IMG/VR virus record: IMGVR_UViG_2740892229_000004
Origin: a virus
Taxonomy: Duplodnaviria > Heunggongvirae > Uroviricota > Caudoviricetes
Reading direction: 5' to 3' (one strand)
DNA: 11,421 bases
Shown: in pieces, positions 1 through 9,044 of the stretch
How the letters are laid out: the number at the start of each line of letters is the position of its first letter
Numbering within the stretch: the first letter of the stretch is position 1
Made by a program: the position numbers and the translations under genes
Notes under the pieces: generated by a model
Databases searched by the model: none
What the model was told of the DNA's origin: nothing
The model's input: the letters and a program-made list of their open reading frames with translations, nothing else

Positions 1-216
1 CAGAAGACGCAGATGCCGTCCATGAATGAAGCCGTTAAACAGATTGAGCAGGAAGTGCTTACCACCTGGCCCACGGAGGCAATTTCTCATGCTGAAAACG
101 TGGTGTACCGGCTGTCTGGTATGTATGAGTTTGTTGTGAATAATGCCCCTGAACAGACAGAGGTCGCCGGGCCCGCAGAGCCTGTTTCTGCGGGAAAGTG
201 TTCGACGGTGAGCTGA
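1..216 (+). CDS. G: Tail assembly chaperone gpG, C-terminal fragment (lambda-like allele; 5' end outside window)
   Basis: Frame 1 from position 1 reads QKTQMPSMNEAVKQIEQEVLTTWPTEAISHAENVVYRLSGMYEFVVNNAPEQTEVAGPAEPVSAGKCSTVS then stop, matching my recollection of the lambda gpG C-terminus. It is a second allele of the complete G at 1523..1945. Confidence 0.85.
   Translation, partial: QKTQMPSMNEAVKQIEQEVLTTWPTEAISHAENVVYRLSGMYEFVVNNAPEQTEVAGPAEPVSAGKCSTVS
192..198 (+). promoter_or_regulatory. Slippery heptamer G_GGA_AAG for the -1 programmed frameshift (G to G-T), copy 1
   Basis: GGGAAAG sits in the G frame (gcg gga aag) 6 codons before the G stop. The -1 frame continues as FDGELSFALKL (the T reading frame) until the gap at 235. 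Confidence 0.8.
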
Positions 217-244
217 GTTTTGCCCTGAAACTGGNNNNNNNNNN

Positions 245-574
245 CTTTTTGATGGTCGCCCCGCTGTTTTTGATGAGGAAGATTTTCCGGCAATTGCCGT
301 TTATCTCACCGGCGCTGAATACACGGGCGAAGAGCTGGACAGCGATACCTGGCAGGCGGAGCTGCATATTGAAGTTTTCCTGCCTGCTCAGGTGCCGGAT
401 TCAGAGCTGGATGCGTGGATGGAGTCCCGGATTTATCCGGTGATGAGCGATATCCCGGCACTGGCAGGACTGATTACCACGATGGTTACGCAGGGCTATG
501 AGTATCGTCGTGATGACGATATGGCGTTATGGAGTTCTGCAGATCTGACTTATTCCATTACATACGAGATGTGA
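245..574 (+). CDS. U: Tail terminator protein gpU, C-terminal part (5' end lost at gap 235..244)
   Basis: Translation [109 protein letters not shown] with stop at 572..574 matches lambda gpU with a few substitutions. Confidence 0.85.
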   Translation, partial: LFDGRPAVFDEEDFPAIAVYLTGAEYTGEELDSDTWQAELHIEVFLPAQVPDSELDAWMESRIYPVMSDIPALAGLITTMVTQGYEYRRDDDMALWSSADLTYSITYEM

Positions 575-581
575 GGACGAT

Positions 582-622
582 ATGGCAACACCAAATCCCC
601 TTGAGCCGGTAAAAGGTGCCGG
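582..622 (+). CDS. V: Major tail protein gpV, 5' fragment of a variant allele (MATPNPLEPVKGAG), cut by gap 623..632
   Basis: ATG at 582 lies 8 nt after the U stop and is preceded by GAGGA. The 14 codons parallel the V N-terminus ([14 protein letters not shown]) of the complete copy at 767. Confidence 0.6.
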
Positions 623-633
623 NNNNNNNNNNT

Positions 634-759
634 GATATCCCGGCACTGTCAGATTTGATCACCAGTATGGTGACCAGCGGCTATGACTATCGGCGCGACG
701 ATGATGCGGGCCTGTGGAGTTCAGCCGATCTGACTTATGTCATTACCTATGAAATGTGA
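634..759 (+). CDS. U: gpU C-terminal fragment, second allele
   Basis: Translation [41 protein letters not shown] with stop at 757..759 is the lambda-type gpU C-terminus. Confidence 0.8.
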
Positions 760-766
760 GGACGCT

Positions 767-1507
767 ATGCCTGTACCAAATCCTGTAATGCCGGTGAAAG
801 GGGCCGGGACCACCCTGTGGGTTTATAAGGGGAGTGGTGACCCTTATGCGAATCCGCTTTCAGACGTTGACTGGTCGCGTCTGGCAAAAGTTAAAGACCT
901 GACGCCCGGCGAACTGACCGCTGAGTCTTATGACGACAGCTATCTCGATGATGAAGATGCAGACTGGACTGCGACCGGGCAGGGGCAGAAATCTGCCGGA
1001 GATACCAGCTTCACGCTGGCGTGGATGCCCGGAGAGCAGGGGCAGCAGGCGCTGCTGGCGTGGTTTAATGAAGGCGATACCCGTGCCTATAAAATCCGCT
1101 TCCCGAACGGCACGGTCGATGTGTTCCGTGGCTGGGTCAGCAGTATCGGTAAGGCGGTGACGGCGAAGGAAGTGATTACCCGCACGGTGAAGGTCACCAA
1201 TGTGGGACGTCCGTCGATGGCAGAAGATCGCAGCACGGTGACGGCGACAACCGGCATGACGGTGACACCCGCCAGTGCTTCCGTAGTGAAAGGGCAGAGC
1301 ACCACGCTGACCGTGGCATTCCAGCCGGATGGCGCAACCGACAAGAGCTTCCGTGCGGTGTCTGCGGATAAAACAAAAGCCACCGTGTCGGTCAGTGGTA
1401 TGACCATCACCGTGAAAGGTGTTGCTGCAGGCAAGGTCAACATTCCGGTCGTATCCGGTAATGGTGAGTTTGCTGCGGTTGCAGAAATCAACGTCACCGC
1501 CAGTTAA
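767..1507 (+). CDS. V: Major tail tube protein gpV, complete (246 aa) with C-terminal Ig-like domain
   Basis: ATG at 767 is preceded by GAGGA at 758..762. The translation [36 protein letters not shown]...[18 protein letters not shown] is near-identical to lambda gpV as I recall it. The C-terminal third is Thr/Val/Ser-rich, typical of a Big_2 Ig-like domain. The track ORF 737..1507 begins at an upstream in-frame ATG inside the U tail, which I reject as the start. Confidence 0.95.
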
Positions 1508-1522
1508 TCCGGAGAGTCAGCG

Positions 1523-1945
1523 ATGTTCCTGAAAACCGAATCATTTGAACATAACGGTGTGACCGTCACGCTTTCTGAACTGTCAGCCCTGCAGCGTATT
1601 GAGCATCTCGCCCTGATGAAACGGCAGGCAGAACAGGCGGAGTCAGACAGCAACCGGAAGTTTACTGTGGAAGACGCCATCAGAACCGGCGCGTTTCTGG
1701 TGGCGATGTCCCTGTGGCATAACCATCCGAAGAAGACAAAGCTGCCTTCCATGAATGAAGCCGTTAAACAGATTGAGCAGGAAGTGCTTACCACCTGGCC
1801 CACAGAGGCAATTTCTCATGCTGAAAACGTGGTGTACCGGCTGTCCGGTATGTATGAGTTTGTGGTGACTGATGCTCCTGAACAGGCAGAGGACGCCGGG
1901 CCTGCAGAGCCTGTTTCTGCGGGAAAGTGTTCGACGGTGAGCTGA
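1523..1945 (+). CDS. G: Tail assembly chaperone gpG, complete (140 aa)
   Basis: ATG at 1523 is preceded by GGAGAG at 1511..1516. Translation MFLKTESFEHNGVTVTLSELSALQRIEHLALMKRQAEQAESDSNRKFTVEDAIRTGAFLVAMSLWHNHP... matches lambda gpG. The C-terminal region differs from the fragment at 1..216 (VTDAPEQAED versus VNNAPEQTEV). Confidence 0.95.
   Translation: MFLKTESFEHNGVTVTLSELSALQRIEHLALMKRQAEQAESDSNRKFTVEDAIRTGAFLVAMSLWHNHPKKTKLPSMNEAVKQIEQEVLTTWPTEAISHAENVVYRLSGMYEFVVTDAPEQAEDAGPAEPVSAGKCSTVS
1921..1927 (+). promoter_or_regulatory. Slippery heptamer G_GGA_AAG for the -1 programmed frameshift producing gpG-T, copy 2
   Basis: The heptamer is in the G zero frame (gcg 1919..1921, gga 1922..1924, aag 1925..1927). 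The -1 frame is open from here to 2361 and encodes the T sequence. Confidence 0.85.
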
Positions 1946-2361
1946 GTTTTGCCCTGAAACTGGCGCGTGAGATGGGGCGACCCGACTGGCGCGCCATGCT
2001 TGCCGGGATGTCATCCACGGAGTATGCCGACTGGCACCGCTTTTACAGTACCCATTATTTTCATGATGTTCTGCTGGATATGCACTTTTCCGGGCTGACG
2101 TACACTGTGCTCAGCCTGTTTTTCAGCGATCCGGAGATGCATCCGCTGGATTTCAGTCTGCTGAACCGGCGCGAGGCTGACGAAGAGCCTGAAGATGATG
2201 TGCTGATGCAGAAAGCGGCAGGGCTTGCCGGAGGTGTCCGCTTTGGCCCGGACGGGAATGAAGTTATCCCTACTTCCCCGGATGTGGCGGACATGACGGA
2301 GGATGACGTAATGCTGATGACAGTATCAGAAGGGATCGCAGGAGGAGTCCGGTATGGCTGA
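1927..2361 (+). CDS. T: gpT reading frame, expressed as the C-terminal extension of the G-T fusion chaperone by -1 frameshift from G
   Basis: The -1 frame relative to G reads FDGELSFALKLAREMGRPDWRAMLAGMSSTEYADWHRFYSTHYFHDVLLDMHFSGLTYTVLSLFFSDPEMHPLDFSLLNRREADEEPEDDVLMQKAAGL... with stop at 2359..2361. It has no independent start or ribosome-binding site and overlaps the H start. Confidence 0.9.
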   Translation: MFDGELSFALKLAREMGRPDWRAMLAGMSSTEYADWHRFYSTHYFHDVLLDMHFSGLTYTVLSLFFSDPEMHPLDFSLLNRREADEEPEDDVLMQKAAGLAGGVRFGPDGNEVIPTSPDVADMTEDDVMLMTVSEGIAGGVRYG

Positions 2362-3025
2362 ACCGGTAGGCGATCTGGTCGTTGATTTAAGTCTGGATGC
2401 GGCCAGATTTGACGAGCAGATGGCCAGAGTCAGGCGTCATTTTTCCGGTACGGAAAGTGATGCGAAAAAAACAGCGGCAGTCGTTGAACAGTCGCTGAGC
2501 CGACAGGCACTGGCTGCACAGAAAGCGGGGATTTCCGTCGGGCAGTATAAAGCCGCCATGCGTATGCTGCCTGCACAGTTCACCGACGTGGCCACGCAGC
2601 TTGCAGGCGGGCAAAGTCCGTGGCTGATCCTGCTGCAACAGGGTGGTCAGGTTAAGGACTCCTTCGGCGGGATGATCCCCATGTTCAGGGGGCTTGCCGG
2701 TGCGATCACCCTGCCGATGGTGGGGGCCACCTCGCTGGCGGTGGCGACCGGTGCGCTGGCGTATGCCTGGTATCAGGGCAACTCAACCCTGTCCGATTTC
2801 AACAAAACGCTGGTCCTTTCCGGCAATCAGGCGGGACTGACGGCAGATCGTATGCTGGTCCTGTCCAGAGCCGGGCAGGCGGCAGGGCTGACGTTTAACC
2901 AGACCAGCGAGTCACTCAGCGCACTGGTTAAGGCGGGGGTAAGCGGTGAGGCTCAGATTGCGTCCATCAGCCAGAGTGTGGCGCGTTTCTCCTCTGCATC
3001 CGGCGTGGAGGTGGACAAGGTCGCT
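2354..3025 (+). CDS. H: Tape measure protein gpH, N-terminal part (cut by gap 3026..3035)
   Basis: ATG at 2354 is preceded by GGAGG at 2341..2345. Translation MAEPVGDLVVDLSLDAARFDEQMARVRRHFSGTESDAKK...ASISQSVARFSSASGVEVDKVA matches the lambda gpH N-terminus, including a hydrophobic stretch GLAGAITLPMVGATSLAVATGALAYAW. Confidence 0.92.
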
Positions 3026-3035
3026 NNNNNNNNNN

Positions 3036-3144
3036 GACGGCCCTGGTGAATGCCGGTGTGCGTGGTGGTGAGCAGTTTGAGGCGATCAGCCAGAGTGTGG
3101 CGCGTTTCTCCTCTGCATCCGGCGTGGAGGTGGACAAGGTCGCT
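3036..3144 (+). CDS. H: gpH fragment, alternative allele of the segment ending ...SQSVARFSSASGVEVDKVA
   Basis: Reads TALVNAGVRGGEQFEAISQSVARFSSASGVEVDKVA, against SALVKAGVSGEAQIASISQSVARFSSASGVEVDKVA in the preceding fragment. It is bounded by N10 runs on both sides. Confidence 0.75.
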
Positions 3145-3154
3145 NNNNNNNNNN

Positions 3155-3262
3155 TTGTCCGATTTCAACAAAACGCTGGCCCTTTCCGGCAATCAGTCGG
3201 GGCTGACGGCAGATCGTATGCTGGTCCTGTCCAGAGCCGGGCAGGCGGCAGGGCTGACGTTT
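3155..3262 (+). CDS. H: gpH fragment, alternative allele of the segment LSDFNKTL(V/A)LSGNQ(A/S)GLTADRMLVLSRAGQAAGLTF
   Basis: Reads LSDFNKTLALSGNQSGLTADRMLVLSRAGQAAGLTF. The same segment occurs at about 2797..2896 with V and A at the variable positions. Confidence 0.75.
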
Positions 3263-3272
3263 NNNNNNNNNN

Positions 3273-3838
3273 ACTGACAGCGATGGCACGTCAGTTCCAT
3301 AACGTGACGGCGGAGCAGATTGCGTATGTTGCTCAGTTGCAGCGTTCCGGAGATGAAGCCGGGGCATTGCAGGCGGCGAACGAGGCCGCAACGAAAGGGT
3401 TTGATGACCAGACCCGCCGCCTGAAAGAGAACATGGGCACGCTGGAGACCTGGGCAGACAGGACTGCGCGGGCCTTCAAATCCATGTGGGATGCGGTGCT
3501 GGATATTGGTCGTCCTGATACCGCGCAGGAGATGCTGATTAAGGCAGAGGCTGCGTTTAAGAAAGCAGACGACATCTGGAATCTGCGCAAGGATGATTAT
3601 TTTGTTAACGATGAAGCGCGGGCGCGTTACTGGGATGATCGTGAAAAGGCCCGTCTTGCGCTTGAAGCCGCCCGAAAGAAGGCTGAGCAGCAGACTCAAC
3701 AGGACAAAAATGCGCAGCAGCAGAGCGATACCGAAGCGTCACGGCTGAAATATACCGAAGAGGCGCAGAAGGCTTACGAACGGCTGCAGACGCCGCTGGA
3801 GAAATATACCGCCCGTCAGGAAGAACTGAACAAGGCAC
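3273..3838 (+). CDS. H: gpH internal fragment (lambda-type allele, alpha-helical coiled-coil region)
   Basis: Reads LTAMARQFHNVTAEQIAYVAQLQRSGDEAGALQAANEAATKGFDDQTRRLKENMGTLETWADRTARAFKSMWDAVLDIGRPDTAQEMLIKAEAAFKKADDIWNLRKDDYFVNDEARARYWDDREKARLALEAARKKAEQQTQQDKNAQQQSDTEASRLKYTEEAQKAYERLQTPLEKYTARQEELNKA, matching lambda gpH. Confidence 0.88.
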
Positions 3839-3848
3839 NNNNNNNNNN

Positions 3849-4855
3849 AGCACGGGCATTCAAATCCATGTGGGATTCGGTGTTGGATATTGGTCGCCCG
3901 GACACTGCCCAGGGAATGCTGGAGAAAGCAGAAAAGGCTTTTGATGAGGCGGACAAAAAATGGCAGTGGTATCAGAGCCGGAGCCACCGGCGCGGTAAAA
4001 CCTCAGCATTTCTTGCCAATCTCCGGGGAGCATGGGAGGACAGAGCGAATGCGCAACTTGGGCTTTCAGCCGCCACGTTGCAGGCCGATCTTGAAAAGGC
4101 CAGAGAGATGGCAGCAAAGGACTGGGCCGAGTCTGAGGCATCACGGCTGAAATATACCGAAGAGGCGCAGAAGGCTTACAAACGGCTGCAGACGCCGCTG
4201 GAGAAATATACCGCCCGTCAGGAAGAACTGAACAAGGCACTGAAAGACGGGAAAATCCTGCAGGCGGATTACAACACGCTGATGGCGGCGGCGAAAAAGG
4301 ATTATGAAGCGACGCTGAAAAAGCCGAAACAGTCCGGCGTGAAGGTGTCTGCGGGCGATCGTCAGGAAGACAGTGCTCATGCTGCCCTGCTGACGCTTCA
4401 GGCAGAACTCCGGACGCTGGAGAAGCATGCCGGAGCAAATGAGAAAATCAGCCAGCAGCGCCGGGATTTGTGGAAGGCGGAGAGTCAGTTCGCGGTACTG
4501 GAGGAGGCGGCGCAACGTCGCCAGCTGTCTGCACAGGAGAAATCCCTGCTGGCGCATAAAGATGAGACGCTGGAGTACAAACGCCAGCTGGCTGCACTTG
4601 GCGACAAGGTTACGTATCAGGAGCGCCTGAACGCGCTGGCGCAGCAGGCGGATAAATTCGCACAGCAGCAACGGGCAAAACGGGCCGCCATTGATGCGAA
4701 AAGCCGGGGGCTGACTGACCGGCAGGCAGAACGGGAAGCCACGGAACAGCGCCTGAAGGAACAGTATGGCGATAATCCGCTGGCGCTGAATAACGTCATG
4801 TCAGAGCAGAAAAAGACCTGGGCGGCTGAAGACCAGCTTCGCGGGAGCTGGATGG
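3849..4855 (+). CDS. H: gpH internal fragment: its first ~290 nt are a divergent allele of 3463..3838, then it continues into the downstream coiled-coil region
   Basis: Begins ARAFKSMWDSVLDIGRPDTAQGMLEKAEKAFDEADKKWQWYQSRSHRRGKTSAFLANLRGAWEDRANAQLGLSAATLQADLEKAREMAAKDWAESEASRLKYTEEAQKAYKRLQTPLEKYTARQEELNKALKDGKILQADYNTLMAAAKK... and runs to ...MSEQKKTWAAEDQLRGSWM. The flanks are conserved and the central cassette is divergent relative to the previous fragment. Confidence 0.88.
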
Positions 4856-4865
4856 NNNNNNNNNN

Positions 4866-4926
4866 ATCATGTCAGAGCAGAAAAAGACCTGGGCGGCTGA
4901 AGACCAGCTTCGCGGGAACTGGATGG
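4866..4926 (+). CDS. H: gpH 61-nt fragment, single-codon variant (RGNWM versus RGSWM) of the end of the previous fragment
   Basis: Reads IMSEQKKTWAAEDQLRGNWM and is near-identical to 4795..4855. Confidence 0.7.
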
Positions 4927-4936
4927 NNNNNNNNNN

Positions 4937-5302
4937 GCAGCAGCAGGGCGCGAAGCAGGCGGCAATCAGTGCCCAGGCGCGGGGCCTCACCGACCGTCAG
5001 GCGCAGCGGGAGTCGGAAGAGCAGCGCCTTCGTGACGTGTACGGTGATAATCCGGCTGCGCTGGCGAAGGCCACATCGGCACTGAAGAACACCTGGTCTG
5101 CGGAGGAGCAGCTTCGTGGAAGCTGGATGGCCGGGCTGAAGTCCGGCTGGGGCGAGTGGGCGGAAAGTGCGACGGACAGTTTTTCGCAGGTTAAAAGCGT
5201 GGCCACGCAGACCTTTGACGGTATTGCACAGAATATGGCGGTGATGCTGACCGGCAGTGAACAGAACTGGCGCAGCTTCACCCGCTCCGTGCTGTCCATG
5301 AT
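4937..5302 (+). CDS. H: gpH internal fragment, strongly diverged allele of the region covered by ~4670..4855 and 5313..5482
   Basis: Reads QQQGAKQAAISAQARGLTDRQAQRESEEQRLRDVYGDNPAALAKATSALKNTWSAEEQLRGSWMAGLKSGWGEWAESATDSFSQVKSVATQTFDGIAQNMAVMLTGSEQNWRSFTRSVLSM. Its counterpart in the neighbouring fragments is QQQRAKRAAIDAKSRGLTDRQAEREATEQRLKEQYGDNPLALNNVMSEQKKTWAAEDQLRG(S/N)WM then AGLKSGWSEWEESATDSMSQVKSAATQ... Confidence 0.82.
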
Positions 5303-5312
5303 NNNNNNNNNN

Positions 5313-5854
5313 CAGGCCTGAAGTCCGGCTGGAGTGAGTGGGAAGAGAGCGCCACGGACAGTATGTCGCAGGTAAAAAGTGCAGCCACGCAGACCTTTGA
5401 TGGTATTGCACAGAATATGGCAGCGATGCTGACCGGCAGTGAGCAGAACTGGCGCAGCTTCACCCGTTCCGTGCTGTCCATGATGACAGAAATTCTGCTT
5501 AAGCAGGCAATGGTGGGGATTGTCGGGAGTATCGGCAGCGCCATTGGCGGGGCTGTTGGTGGCGGCGCATCCGCGTCAGGTGGTACAGCCATTCAGGCCG
5601 CTGCGGCGAAATTCCATTTTGCAACCGGGGGATTTACGGGAACCGGCGGCAAATATGAGCCAGCGGGGATTGTTCACCGTGGTGAATTTGTCTTCACGAA
5701 GGAGGCAACCAGCCGGATTGGCGTGGGGAATCTCTACCGGCTGATGCGCGGCTATGCCACCGGTGGTTATGTCGGTACACCGGGCAGTCTGGCTGACAGC
5801 CGGTCGCAGGCGTCCGGGACGTTTGAGCAGAATAACCATGTGGTGATTAACAAC
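5313..5854 (+). CDS. H: gpH fragment: hydrophobic Gly/Ala-rich segment and distal region
   Basis: Reads GLKSGWSEWEESATDSMSQVKSAATQTFDGIAQNMAAMLTGSEQNWRSFTRSVLSMMTEILLKQAMVGIVGSIGSAIGGAVGGGASASGGTAIQAAAAKFHFATGGFTGTGGKYEPAGIVHRGEFVFTKEATSRIGVGNLYRLMRGYATGGYVGTPGSLADSRSQASGTFEQNNHVVINN, matching lambda gpH. Confidence 0.88.
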
Positions 5855-5864
5855 NNNNNNNNNN

Positions 5865-5925
5865 GACCGGGGGATTTACGGGAACCGGCGGCAAATATGA
5901 GCCAGCGGGGATTGTTCACCGTGGT
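5865..5925 (+). CDS. H: gpH 61-nt fragment duplicating 5626..5686 (TGGFTGTGGKYEPAGIVHRG)
   Basis: Identical to the corresponding stretch of the previous fragment except for its first base. Bounded by N10 runs on both sides. Confidence 0.7.
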
Positions 5926-5935
5926 NNNNNNNNNN

Positions 5936-6233
5936 GTTTGTCTTCACGAAGGAGGCAACCAGCCGGATTGGCGTGGGGAATCTTTACCGGCTGATGCGCG
6001 GCTATGCCACCGGCGGTTATGTCGGTACACCGGGCAGCATGGCAGACAGCCGGTCGCAGGCGTCCGGGACGTTTGAGCAGAATAACCATGTGGTGATTAA
6101 CAACGACGGCACGAACGGGCAGATAGGTCCGGCTGCTCTGAAGGCGGTGTATGACATGGCCCGCAAGGGTGCCCGTGATGAAATTCAGACACAGATGCGT
6201 GATGGTGGCCTGTTCTCCGGAGGTGGACGATGA
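5936..6233 (+). CDS. H: gpH C-terminal end, allele 1 (stop at 6231..6233)
   Basis: Reads FVFTKEATSRIGVGNLYRLMRGYATGGYVGTPGSMADSRSQASGTFEQNNHVVINNDGTNGQIGPAALKAVYDMARKGARDEIQTQMRDGGLFSGGGR then stop, matching the lambda gpH C-terminus. The stop overlaps the M start as ATGA. Confidence 0.92.
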
Positions 6234-6379
6234 AGACCTTCCGCTGGAAAGTGAAACCCGGTATGGATGTGGCTTCGGTCCCTTCTGTAAGAAAGGTGCG
6301 CTTTGGTGATGGCTATTCTCAGCGAGCGCCTGCCGGGCTGAATGCCAACCTGAAAACGTACAGCGTGACGCTTTCTGTC
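6230..6379 (+). CDS. M: Tail tip assembly protein gpM, 5' part of copy 1 (cut by gap 6380..6389)
   Basis: Reads MKTFRWKVKPGMDVASVPSVRKVRFGDGYSQRAPAGLNANLKTYSVTLSV, matching the lambda gpM N-terminus. Confidence 0.88.
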
Positions 6380-6389
6380 NNNNNNNNNN

Positions 6390-6750
6390 AACCGGAGGAT
6401 TTACGGGAACCGGCGGCAAATATGAGCCAGCGGGGATTGTTCACCGTGGTGAATTTGTCTTCACGAAGGAGGCAACCAGCCGGATTGGTGTCGGCAACCT
6501 GTACCGCCTGATGCGGGGCTATGCGGAAGGTGGTTATGTGGGCGGTGCCGGAAGTCCGGCGCAGATGCGGCGGGCTGAAGGCATTAATTTTAATCAGAAC
6601 AATCACGTGGTGATTCAGAACGACGGTACGAATGGTCTGCCAGGTCCACAGATGATGAAGGCGGTGTATGACATGGCCCGCAAGGGTGCCCGTGATGAAA
6701 TCCAGGCACAGATGCGCGATGGTGGTCTGTTCTCCGGAGGTGGACGATGA
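6390..6750 (+). CDS. H: gpH C-terminal end, allele 2 (diverged distal segment)
   Basis: Reads TGGFTGTGGKYEPAGIVHRGEFVFTKEATSRIGVGNLYRLMRGYAEGGYVGGAGSPAQMRRAEGINFNQNNHVVIQNDGTNGLPGPQMMKAVYDMARKGARDEIQAQMRDGGLFSGGGR then stop. The region GYAEGGYVGGAGSPAQMRRAEGINFNQ ... LPGPQMM differs from allele 1 (GYATGGYVGTPGSMADSRSQASGTFEQ ... QIGPAAL). Confidence 0.88.
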
Positions 6751-7076
6751 AAACCTTCCGCTGGAAAGTGAAACCCGGTATGGATGTGGCTTCGGCCCCT
6801 TCTGTAAGAAAGGTGCGCTTTGGTGATGGCTATTCCCAGCGAGCGCCTGCCGGGCTGAATGCCAACCTGAAAACGTACAGCGTGACGCTTTCTGTCCCCC
6901 GTGAGGAGGCCACGGTACTGGAGTCGTTTCTGGAAGAGCACGGGGGCTGGAAAGCCTTTCTGTGGACGCCGCCTTATGAGTGGCGGCAGATAAAGGTGAC
7001 CTGCGCAAAATGGTCGTCGCGGGTCAGTATGTTGCGTGTTGAGTTCAGCGCAGAGTTTGAACAGGTGGTGAACTGA
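6747..7076 (+). CDS. M: Tail tip assembly protein gpM, complete (109 aa)
   Basis: Reads MKTFRWKVKPGMDVASAPSVRKVRFGDGYSQRAPAGLNANLKTYSVTLSVPREEATVLESFLEEHGGWKAFLWTPPYEWRQIKVTCAKWSSRVSMLRVEFSAEFEQVVN, matching lambda gpM. Its start overlaps the H stop (ATGA) and its stop overlaps the L start (TGATG). Confidence 0.95.
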   Translation: MKTFRWKVKPGMDVASAPSVRKVRFGDGYSQRAPAGLNANLKTYSVTLSVPREEATVLESFLEEHGGWKAFLWTPPYEWRQIKVTCAKWSSRVSMLRVEFSAEFEQVVN

Positions 7077-7461
7077 TGCAGGATATCCGACAGGAAACAC
7101 TGAATGAATGCACCCGTGCGGAGCAGTCTGCCAGCGTGGTGCTCTGGGAAATCGATCTGACAGAGGTTGGTGGAGAACGTTATTTTTTCTGTAATGAGCA
7201 GAACGAAAAAGGTGAGCCGGTCACCTGGCAGGGGCGACAGTATCAGGCGTATCCCATTCAGGGGAGTGTTTCGAACTGAATGGCAAAGGCACCAGTACGC
7301 GCCCCACGCTGACGGTTTCTAACCTGTATGGCATGGTCACCGGGATGGCGGAAGATCTGCAGAGTCTGGTCGGCGGAACGGTGGTCAGGCGTAAGGTTTA
7401 TGCCCGTTTTCTGGATGCGGTGAACTTCGTCAACGGAAACAGCGACGCCGATCCGGAGCAG
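7076..7461 (+). pseudogene. L: gpL copy 1, disrupted by a 1-nt deletion near 7268 (in-frame stop at 7277..7279); the remainder is L sequence in another frame up to gap 7462
   Basis: Reads MQDIRQETLNECTRAEQSASVVLWEIDLTEVGGERYFFCNEQNEKGEPVTWQGRQYQAYPIQGSVSN then stop. Copy 2 has ggggagtggttttgaactg where copy 1 has ggggagtgtttcgaactg, one base shorter. Downstream of the deletion the +1 frame encodes NGKGTSTRPTLTVSNLYGMVTGMAEDLQSLVGGTVVRRKVYARFLDAVNFVNGNSDADPEQ, which is genuine L sequence. Confidence 0.75.
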
Positions 7462-7471
7462 NNNNNNNNNN

Positions 7472-7516
7472 CTGCGTGTTGAGTTCAGCGCAGAGTTTGA
7501 ACAGGTGGTGAACTGA
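7472..7516 (+). CDS. M: gpM 3' terminal fragment (LRVEFSAEFEQVVN, stop 7514..7516)
   Basis: Near-identical to 7031..7076. Followed directly by the L start. Confidence 0.75.
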   Translation: MRVEFSAEFEQVVN

Positions 7517-8088
7517 TGCAGGATATCCGGCAGGAAACACTGAATGAATGCACCCGTGCGGAGCAGTCGGCCAGCGTGGTGCTCTGGGAAATCGACCTGA
7601 CAGAGGTCGGTGGAGAACGTTATTTTTTCTGTAATGAGCAGAACGAAAAAGGTGAGCCGGTCACCTGGCAGGGGCGACAGTATCAGCCGTATCCCATTCA
7701 GGGGAGTGGTTTTGAACTGAATGGCAAAGGCACCAGTACGCGCCCCACGCTGACGGTTTCTAACCTGTACGGTATGGTCACCGGGATGGCGGAAGATCTG
7801 CAGAGTCTGGTCGGCGGAACGGTGGTCCGGCGTAAGGTTTACGCCCGTTTTCTGGATGCGGTGAACTTCGTCAACGGAAACAGCGACGCCGATCCGGAGC
7901 AGGAGGTGATCAGCCGCTGGCGCATCGAGCAGTGCAGCGAACTGAGCGCGGTCAGTGCTTCCTTTGTGCTCTCCACACCGACGGAAACGGATGGTGCCGT
8001 TTTTCCGGGCCGCATCATGCTGGCTAATACCTGCACCTGGACCTATCGCGGCGATGAGTGCGGTTATCACGGTCCGGCGGTCGCGGAT
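7516..8088 (+). CDS. L: Tail tip assembly protein gpL, copy 2, intact frame for 191 codons (3' end cut by gap 8089..8098)
   Basis: Reads MQDIRQETLNECTRAEQSASVVLWEIDLTEVGGERYFFCNEQNEKGEPVTWQGRQYQPYPIQGSGFELNGKGTSTRPTLTVSNLYGMVTGMAEDLQSLVGGTVVRRKVYARFLDAVNFVNGNSDADPEQEVISRWRIEQCSELSAVSASFVLSTPTETDGAVFPGRIMLANTCTWTYRGDECGYHGPAVAD, matching lambda gpL. Confidence 0.92.
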
Positions 8089-8098
8089 NNNNNNNNNN

Positions 8099-8402
8099 TA
8101 GCCGCTGGCGCATCGAGCAGTGCAGCGAACTGAGCGCGGTGAGTGCCTCTTTTGTACTGTCCACGCCGACTGAAACGGATGGTGCCGTTTTTCCGGGGCG
8201 CATCATGCTGGCTAATACCTGCACCTGGACCTATCGCGGTGATGAGTGCGGTTATCACGGTCCGGCGGTCGCGGATGAATATGACCAGCCGATGTCCGAT
8301 ATCACGAAGGATAAATGCAGCAAATGCCTGAGCGGCTGTAAGTTCCGCAATAACGTCGTCAACTTTGGCGGCTTCCTTTCCATTAACAAACTTTCGCAGT
8401 AA
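8099..8402 (+). CDS. L: gpL C-terminal fragment with stop (Cys-rich C-terminus CSKCLSGCKF)
   Basis: Reads SRWRIEQCSELSAVSASFVLSTPTETDGAVFPGRIMLANTCTWTYRGDECGYHGPAVADEYDQPMSDITKDKCSKCLSGCKFRNNVVNFGGFLSINKLSQ then stop at 8400..8402. It is followed by ATG at 8408 (MTQT...), cut by gap 8420. Confidence 0.88.
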
Positions 8403-8429
8403 ATCCCATGACACAGACANNNNNNNNNN

Positions 8430-8778: not shown

Positions 8779-8789
8779 NNNNNNNNNNT

Positions 8790-9044
8790 TATGCCGATCC
8801 GGAGCAGGAGGTGATCAGCCGCTGGCGCATTGAGCAGTGCAGCGAACTGAGCGCGGTGAGTGCCTCCTTTGTACTGTCCACGCCGACGGAAACGGATGGC
8901 GCTGTTTTTCCGGGACGTATCATGCTGGCCAACACCTGCACCTGGACCTATCGCGGTGACGAGTGCGGTTATAGCGGTCCGGCTGTCGCGGATGAATATG
9001 ACCAGCCAACGTCCGATATCACGAAGGATAAATGCAGCAAATGC
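8790..9044 (+). CDS. L: gpL internal-to-C-terminal fragment (another copy, with GYSGPAVAD)
   Basis: Reads YADPEQEVISRWRIEQCSELSAVSASFVLSTPTETDGAVFPGRIMLANTCTWTYRGDECGYSGPAVADEYDQPTSDITKDKCSKC. It is placed out of genomic order between K fragments. Confidence 0.82.

Follow-up and report, generated by a model that had tools for sequence, protein, structure and literature searches.

A one-nucleotide deletion in gene L of a lambdoid prophage, set beside another L allele in a fragmented draft assembly

Gene L and the layout of the window

The window, meaning the whole 11,421-nucleotide stretch of DNA that was analyzed (IMG/VR record IMGVR_UViG_2740892229_000004), corresponds to CCPP01000122.1 of the draft assembly GCA_000752895.1 and covers a tail region only. 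Gene L lies between M and K in the V-G-T-H-M-L-K-I-J cluster, according to both the annotation of finished relatives and the gene calls on draft contigs. The features that concern L in this window are given below, with the frameshifted gene termed copy 1 and the neighboring allele termed copy 2.

6747..7076, plus strand: gene M of the same prophage as copy 1, 109 amino acids, directly 5' of L (from the ORF list and a 109-amino-acid phage tail protein annotated before L in finished relatives)
7076..7279, plus strand: 5' ORF of the frameshifted L, 67 codons, with the TGA at 7277..7279 (from the ORF list and translation)
7268..7269, plus strand: site of the 1-nt deletion, GG in intact alleles and a single G here (from copy 2, the closest intact allele, L003, and the finished pseudogenes L001 and L002)
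7270..7461, plus strand: further L coding sequence, read in the -1 frame as FELNGKGTS...DADPEQ and ending with scaffold piece 13
7462..7471, no strand: scaffold spacer of 10 N, separating piece 13 (thrW-type) from piece 14 (Qin-site-type)
7516..8088, plus strand: copy 2, the intact L of another prophage, first 191 codons, cut by the next spacer
8099..8402, plus strand: 3' remainder of the frameshifted L on piece 15, ending at the natural stop; frame 1 reads SRWRIEQC...INKLSQ-stop
8789..9044, plus strand: fragment, on piece 18, of a third L allele that belongs to a further prophage and is lambda-like (Y124 and S185 shared with lambda)

Copy 1 reads GGGGAGTGTTTCGAACTG at 7261..7278, while copy 2 reads GGGGAGTGGTTTTGAACTG at 7701..7719. 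When 7033..7461 was aligned with 7472..7905, the two copies were approximately 98% identical and differed by about 10 substitutions and a single gap, at 7268/7269, where copy 1 lacks one G of a GG pair. This makes the gene 698 nt long in the deletion allele as opposed to 699 nt in intact alleles. Copy 1 does not hold an uninterrupted L ORF of approximately 232 codons, since it stops after 67. Its ORF begins at an ATG that overlaps the TGA stop of M and ends in ...QGSVSN before the TGA, with the native residues at about 62 to 64 followed by VSN (after residue 64). Recognizable L sequence goes on 3' of the deletion as NGKGTSTRPTLTVSNLYGMV... (translated, FELNGKGTSTRPTLTVSNLYGMV...), with codons at 7270, 7273, 7276, and 7279, which is the -1 frame (equivalent to +2) relative to the ATG. 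An earlier, sequence-only reading of this DNA had described both copies, and its sequences and coordinates match the letters of the window. It had also noted that copy 1 is one base shorter and runs into the TGA at 7277..7279, and both the alignment and the 67-codon ORF agree. The same reading placed the continuing L sequence in the +1 frame; the continuation is there, but the codons at 7270 and 7279 put it in the -1 frame.

Twenty-one runs of exactly 10 N divide the window into 22 pieces of 61 to 2,393 nt. On a finished relative, these map in gene order across the lambda-type tail region, V through J, with overlaps between them. Pieces 4, 8, 11, 13, 15, 20, and 22 are 99.7 to 100% identical to a thrW-type prophage of E. 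coli 2013C-4991, and pieces 3, 7, 10, 12, 14, 17, and 19 are 98 to 100% identical to a second, Qin-site prophage of the same strain. The remaining pieces are only 79 to 97% identical to both prophages and therefore come from at least one more. By this mapping, at least three lambdoid prophages contribute interleaved tail regions to the window. There are 19 direct-repeat families in the window; since the pieces are overlapping contigs of paralogous prophages, these families are not genomic duplications.

This layout also accounts for how the L alleles stand to one another. Copy 1 is on piece 13 (6390..7461), is cut at 7461, and picks up again in piece 15 (8099..8419), which matches positions 7080..7400 of L001, a finished pseudogene, at 100% identity and in reference coordinates starts 8 nt past the end of piece 13. 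Copy 2 is on the intervening piece 14 (7472..8088), which is 100% identical to 998,429..999,045 of 2013C-4991, within the Qin-site (ydfJ) prophage. It is open over all 191 codons on its piece and is an intact 232-amino-acid gene in 2013C-4991, where its locus lies 1.65 Mb from the frameshifted L (at approximately 2,652,150). Since N spacers join the 22 pieces of the window, the side-by-side position of the L copies is a product of assembly layout and not of duplication. The L beside copy 1 would be intact and belong to a different prophage of this genome, with the adjacency arising from a draft assembly that set overlapping short contigs of related prophages abreast with 10-N spacers. The sequence-only reading had counted two L copies and made no mention of the N spacers. 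Its copy sequences hold, but the copies are on separate pieces with a 10-N spacer between them, not neighbors on one molecule, and the L alleles number three. As a caution, no apparent tandem duplication in this window should count as genome structure.

The third L allele is very common, with 1,570 finished-genome records at 99% identity or more. The Qin-site prophage of 2013C-4991 is itself partly degraded: a lom-like gene is split by an IS66-family element (ISEc23) at L006 25643..28782, and an IS3 element is present in the lysis-region cargo.

The truncated product and the prophage that carries it

With the missing G put back, the gene encodes 232 residues that align end to end with lambda gpL ("Tail tip protein L," PDB 8iyk chain L) and differ from it at 6 positions. 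The repaired protein matches the PF05100 profile at positions 1 to 206 (E = 7e-101), whereas the 67-amino-acid product covers only positions 1 to 36 of 206. This peptide is without approximately 85% of the PF05100 domain and without the whole C-terminal [4Fe-4S] domain. In the cryo-EM structure of the lambda tail, gpL and gpJ are found in the trimeric conical tip, and the [4Fe-4S] ligands of gpL are Cys173, Cys182, Cys205, and Cys212 within a C-terminal domain of residues 154 to 232 (PMC10721106). All four cysteine codons are kept in the DNA of copy 1 but lie out of frame past the stop, and the 67-residue product has none of them. A restart at the ATG at 7333, which gives a 146-amino-acid downstream ORF called in drafts, is unlikely to be functional, as no Shine-Dalgarno-like sequence precedes it and residues 65 to 86 would be missing. 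In lambda genetics, L mutants make no tails. With most of PF05100 and the Fe-S domain absent from the peptide, the carrier prophage is predicted to be unable to build a tail tip, and hence a tail, on its own.

In 2013C-4991 (NZ_CP027355.1), the pseudo-L is in a lambdoid prophage of approximately 40 kb (2,642,300..2,682,700), which extends from an integrase by tRNA-Thr (thrW)/proA to the tail fiber genes. The same prophage occupies this site in the German strain 25-07338. Both strains share the L frameshift, a nonsense codon in rrrD, and frameshifts in yfdP and a neighboring early gene. The nonsense codon is at position 85 of this endolysin gene (...VAR-stop-INPY...), with identical DNA in the U.S. 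and German genomes.

L004 29367..29864 (2013C-4991) and L005 21571..22068 (25-07338): rrrD of the thrW prophage, carrying the identical nonsense codon

Outside L, the head and tail genes of this prophage are all annotated as intact, and it also carries lom and an iss/bor-like gene. Overall, it retains a full gene set with point lesions only, and no large deletions or IS insertions were seen in it. A frameshift in rzpD occurs only in the 2013C-4991 assembly (461 nt versus 462 nt) and is either strain specific or an assembly error. For the source strain of the window, we infer the thrW site and the endolysin lesion from relatives that differ from piece 13 at 3 of 1,071 bases. 2013C-4991 is an American O80:H2 EHEC strain that has been discussed among ST301 strains (PMC8537712), and by its matches the carrier lineage evidently includes, or is related to, O80:H2/ST301 EHEC.

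We also compared the repaired L with its closest intact allele and found 16 synonymous and 4 nonsynonymous differing codons, which are too few to test for relaxed constraint. Two of the amino acid changes, T197M and G219V (codons in 8099..8402), are private, at positions that are identical in lambda and both intact alleles compared. These may hint at relaxed constraint past the frameshift but are suggestive only. Apart from these two changes, no decay is visible in L itself beyond the frameshift. Since the differences from intact alleles past the frameshift are still mostly synonymous, the deletion probably arose recently by comparison with the divergence of the prophage family.

Origin of the lesion and its alternatives

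No chance statistic applies to a single-base lesion; the relevant test is reproducibility in other assemblies, which this deletion passed. Five finished E. coli chromosomes covered piece 13 over 1,071 of 1,071 bases with 3 mismatches and no gap, although four of the five have near-equal chromosome lengths and may be one clone, so that the finished set amounts to about two independent lines, to which the drafts add several. All matches to piece 13 beyond these five require one extra base. The 3 mismatches fall outside L, and the part of L on piece 13 shows zero differences from L001. At the site itself, the five finished genomes have the sequence of the window and the closest intact allele (699 nt) has GG. 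An 81-nt probe over the site was matched exactly in only 5 finished genomes, against 3,409 in which at least 80% of it is covered, and the deletion allele was found in none of the 83 phage records with this stretch. The identical 698-nt pseudo-L was also present on eight N-free draft contigs from several WGS projects (JAESNO, JAEUBI, QBC*, and CACSXZ), in most of which it is surrounded by intact H, M, K, I, and J. The lesion is thus not confined to one assembly, being in 13 other sequences that we fetched (5 finished and 8 draft), and the exact 67-amino-acid product occurs on approximately 28 public contigs (NCBI and Logan). An exact-pattern scan for the 40-nt deletion allele in one genome per species gave no match, which carries no weight, as the E. 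coli representative in that set is without this prophage. The pseudo-L is already known in RefSeq, where PGAP lists it in all five finished genomes as a frameshifted pseudogene ("phage minor tail protein L, frameshifted," 698 nt). One of the draft contigs, L008 (JAESNO010000073.1), carries the identical pseudo-L but is only 99.0% identical to the 2013C-4991 prophage (L004) over 10.5 kb, with 105 mismatches, which suggests that co-resident prophages have recombined or that this short-read contig is chimeric.

These data bear on whether the gene is as broken as it looks. The sequence-only reading had offered a consensus error at a G/T run as one option, and a missing G could come from base calling or from the collapse of near-identical prophage copies in a fragmented draft. 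The source assembly is indeed very fragmented here, with 22 pieces of which the shortest is 61 nt, and three other bases of piece 13 differ from the finished prophage. However, the 5 finished genomes and the 8 draft contigs, which come from different projects, have the same deletion and are otherwise invariant over the 698 nt of the gene, and the change is GG to G in a 2-base run rather than in a long homopolymer. Given this recurrence at a 2-base site, an error private to the source assembly is extremely improbable and, for practical purposes, ruled out. Another option raised by that reading was recoding, in which a programmed -1 ribosomal frameshift or transcriptional slippage would restore full-length gpL from the deletion allele. 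In its favor, the L frame past the deletion is still open to the natural stop and the genes next to L are intact. A stimulatory RNA structure 3' of the deletion would not discriminate, since intact alleles have the same sequence there. A rescuing -1 shift would be confined between the -1-frame TGA at 7213 and the 0-frame TGA at 7277, and these 64 nt (7216..7279) contain zero X XXY YYZ heptamers and zero homopolymer runs of 5 or more. The sole heptamer in L, T TTT TTC at 7183, precedes the TGA at 7213, and a shift at this point would lead to termination instead of rescue. Programmed frameshift sites are conserved among homologues, in contrast to this allele, which is limited to one lineage (5 of 3,409 finished genomes, none of the 83 phage records), and the two-frame arrangement of L was absent from every other homologue examined, the 83 phage records included, all of these having one open frame. 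A true lambda-type G/GT site in the same window does show the canonical in-frame G GGA AAG. With no slippery site in the permissive stretch and no conservation, we rejected recoding, which we consider extremely unlikely.

What is left is the sequence-only reading's option of an inactivated L in a decaying prophage, which gains support from the recurrence of the same deletion and from the further lesions in finished relatives. That reading had proposed looking for such lesions; the window holds tail genes only, and it is the finished relatives that supplied the rrrD nonsense codon and the two early-gene frameshifts. Taken together, we believe it very probable that the lesion in copy 1 is a genuine, vertically inherited 1-nt deletion that leaves a pseudo-L in a decaying thrW lambdoid prophage, with the neighboring copy being the intact L of another prophage. 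On this reading, the deletion makes a pseudogene of the gene for the lambda tail tip protein gpL in one lambdoid prophage, which also carries an endolysin nonsense codon and two early-gene frameshifts. The lesion could be real and yet masked if gpL from co-resident prophages (97 to 99% identical) complemented it in trans and allowed packaging on joint induction. The genome contains at least two further L alleles, of which one is an intact 232-amino-acid gene in a finished relative, and the carrier prophage has its other head and tail genes annotated as intact. Complementation between prophages is established in EHEC and was reportedly described by Asadulghani and coworkers in 2009. Still, complementation would have to extend to the nonsense codon of the endolysin gene and the frameshifts of the early genes, and masking bears on the consequence of the lesion and not on its nature. 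We view masking as unlikely. It is more speculative, and in our judgment highly improbable, that the L frameshift and the endolysin nonsense codon mark a prophage locked in place in the carrier lineage and kept for its cargo (iss/bor-like and lom), or that the 67-residue gpL fragment disturbs tail-tip assembly of co-resident or superinfecting lambdoid phages.

Under the pseudogene reading, the biological weight of the finding is small: resident lambdoid prophages of EHEC often have point-mutated morphogenesis genes, and this one would be an ordinary case in a defective prophage. As a stable and lineage-restricted change, however, the deletion might serve as a marker for the thrW prophage of the lineage that holds the O80:H2/ST301 strain and its relatives.

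Comparison with known systems

The closest counterparts of copy 1 are the PGAP pseudogenes C6P55_RS14630 (2013C-4991, NZ_CP027355.1) and ACYKGS_RS14095 (25-07338), which are identical to it in lesion and in gene sequence. Both are contiguous within their thrW prophage, whereas the L of the window is split over two pieces with the L of another prophage between them. Compared with lambda gpL (PF05100, Phage_tail_L), the gene has the same M-L-K-I-J order, the same Fe-S cysteines, and 232 residues when repaired. It differs in having the 1-nt deletion after codon 64, so that only a 67-residue N-terminal peptide is read from the L start.

To our knowledge, the G/GT -1 frameshift is the only recoding event in the lambda tail genes. 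It belongs to the same tail cluster as L and is present in the window, where G GGA AAG is at 1921..1927, in the reading frame of gene G (ORF 1523..1945) and close to its end, and is overlapped by the T ORF. A second G GGA AAG is at 192..198 on piece 1, from another prophage. In contrast to the G/GT site, the L lesion has no slippery heptamer in its permissive stretch and is not conserved. The T TTT TTC heptamer of L is in the 0 frame and kept in both copies (7183..7189 and 7623..7629), a -1 shift there leading to a TGA after about nine codons, and it looks coincidental.

The carrier prophage resembles the cryptic lambdoid prophages of EHEC and K-12, such as the Sp/SpLE pool of O157:H7 Sakai and DLP12, Rac, and Qin of K-12, in its tRNA site and in the scattered point lesions in lysis and morphogenesis genes. 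Relative to these, it is at an early stage of decay, with a full gene set, whereas the Qin-site prophage of the same genome does have IS insertions.
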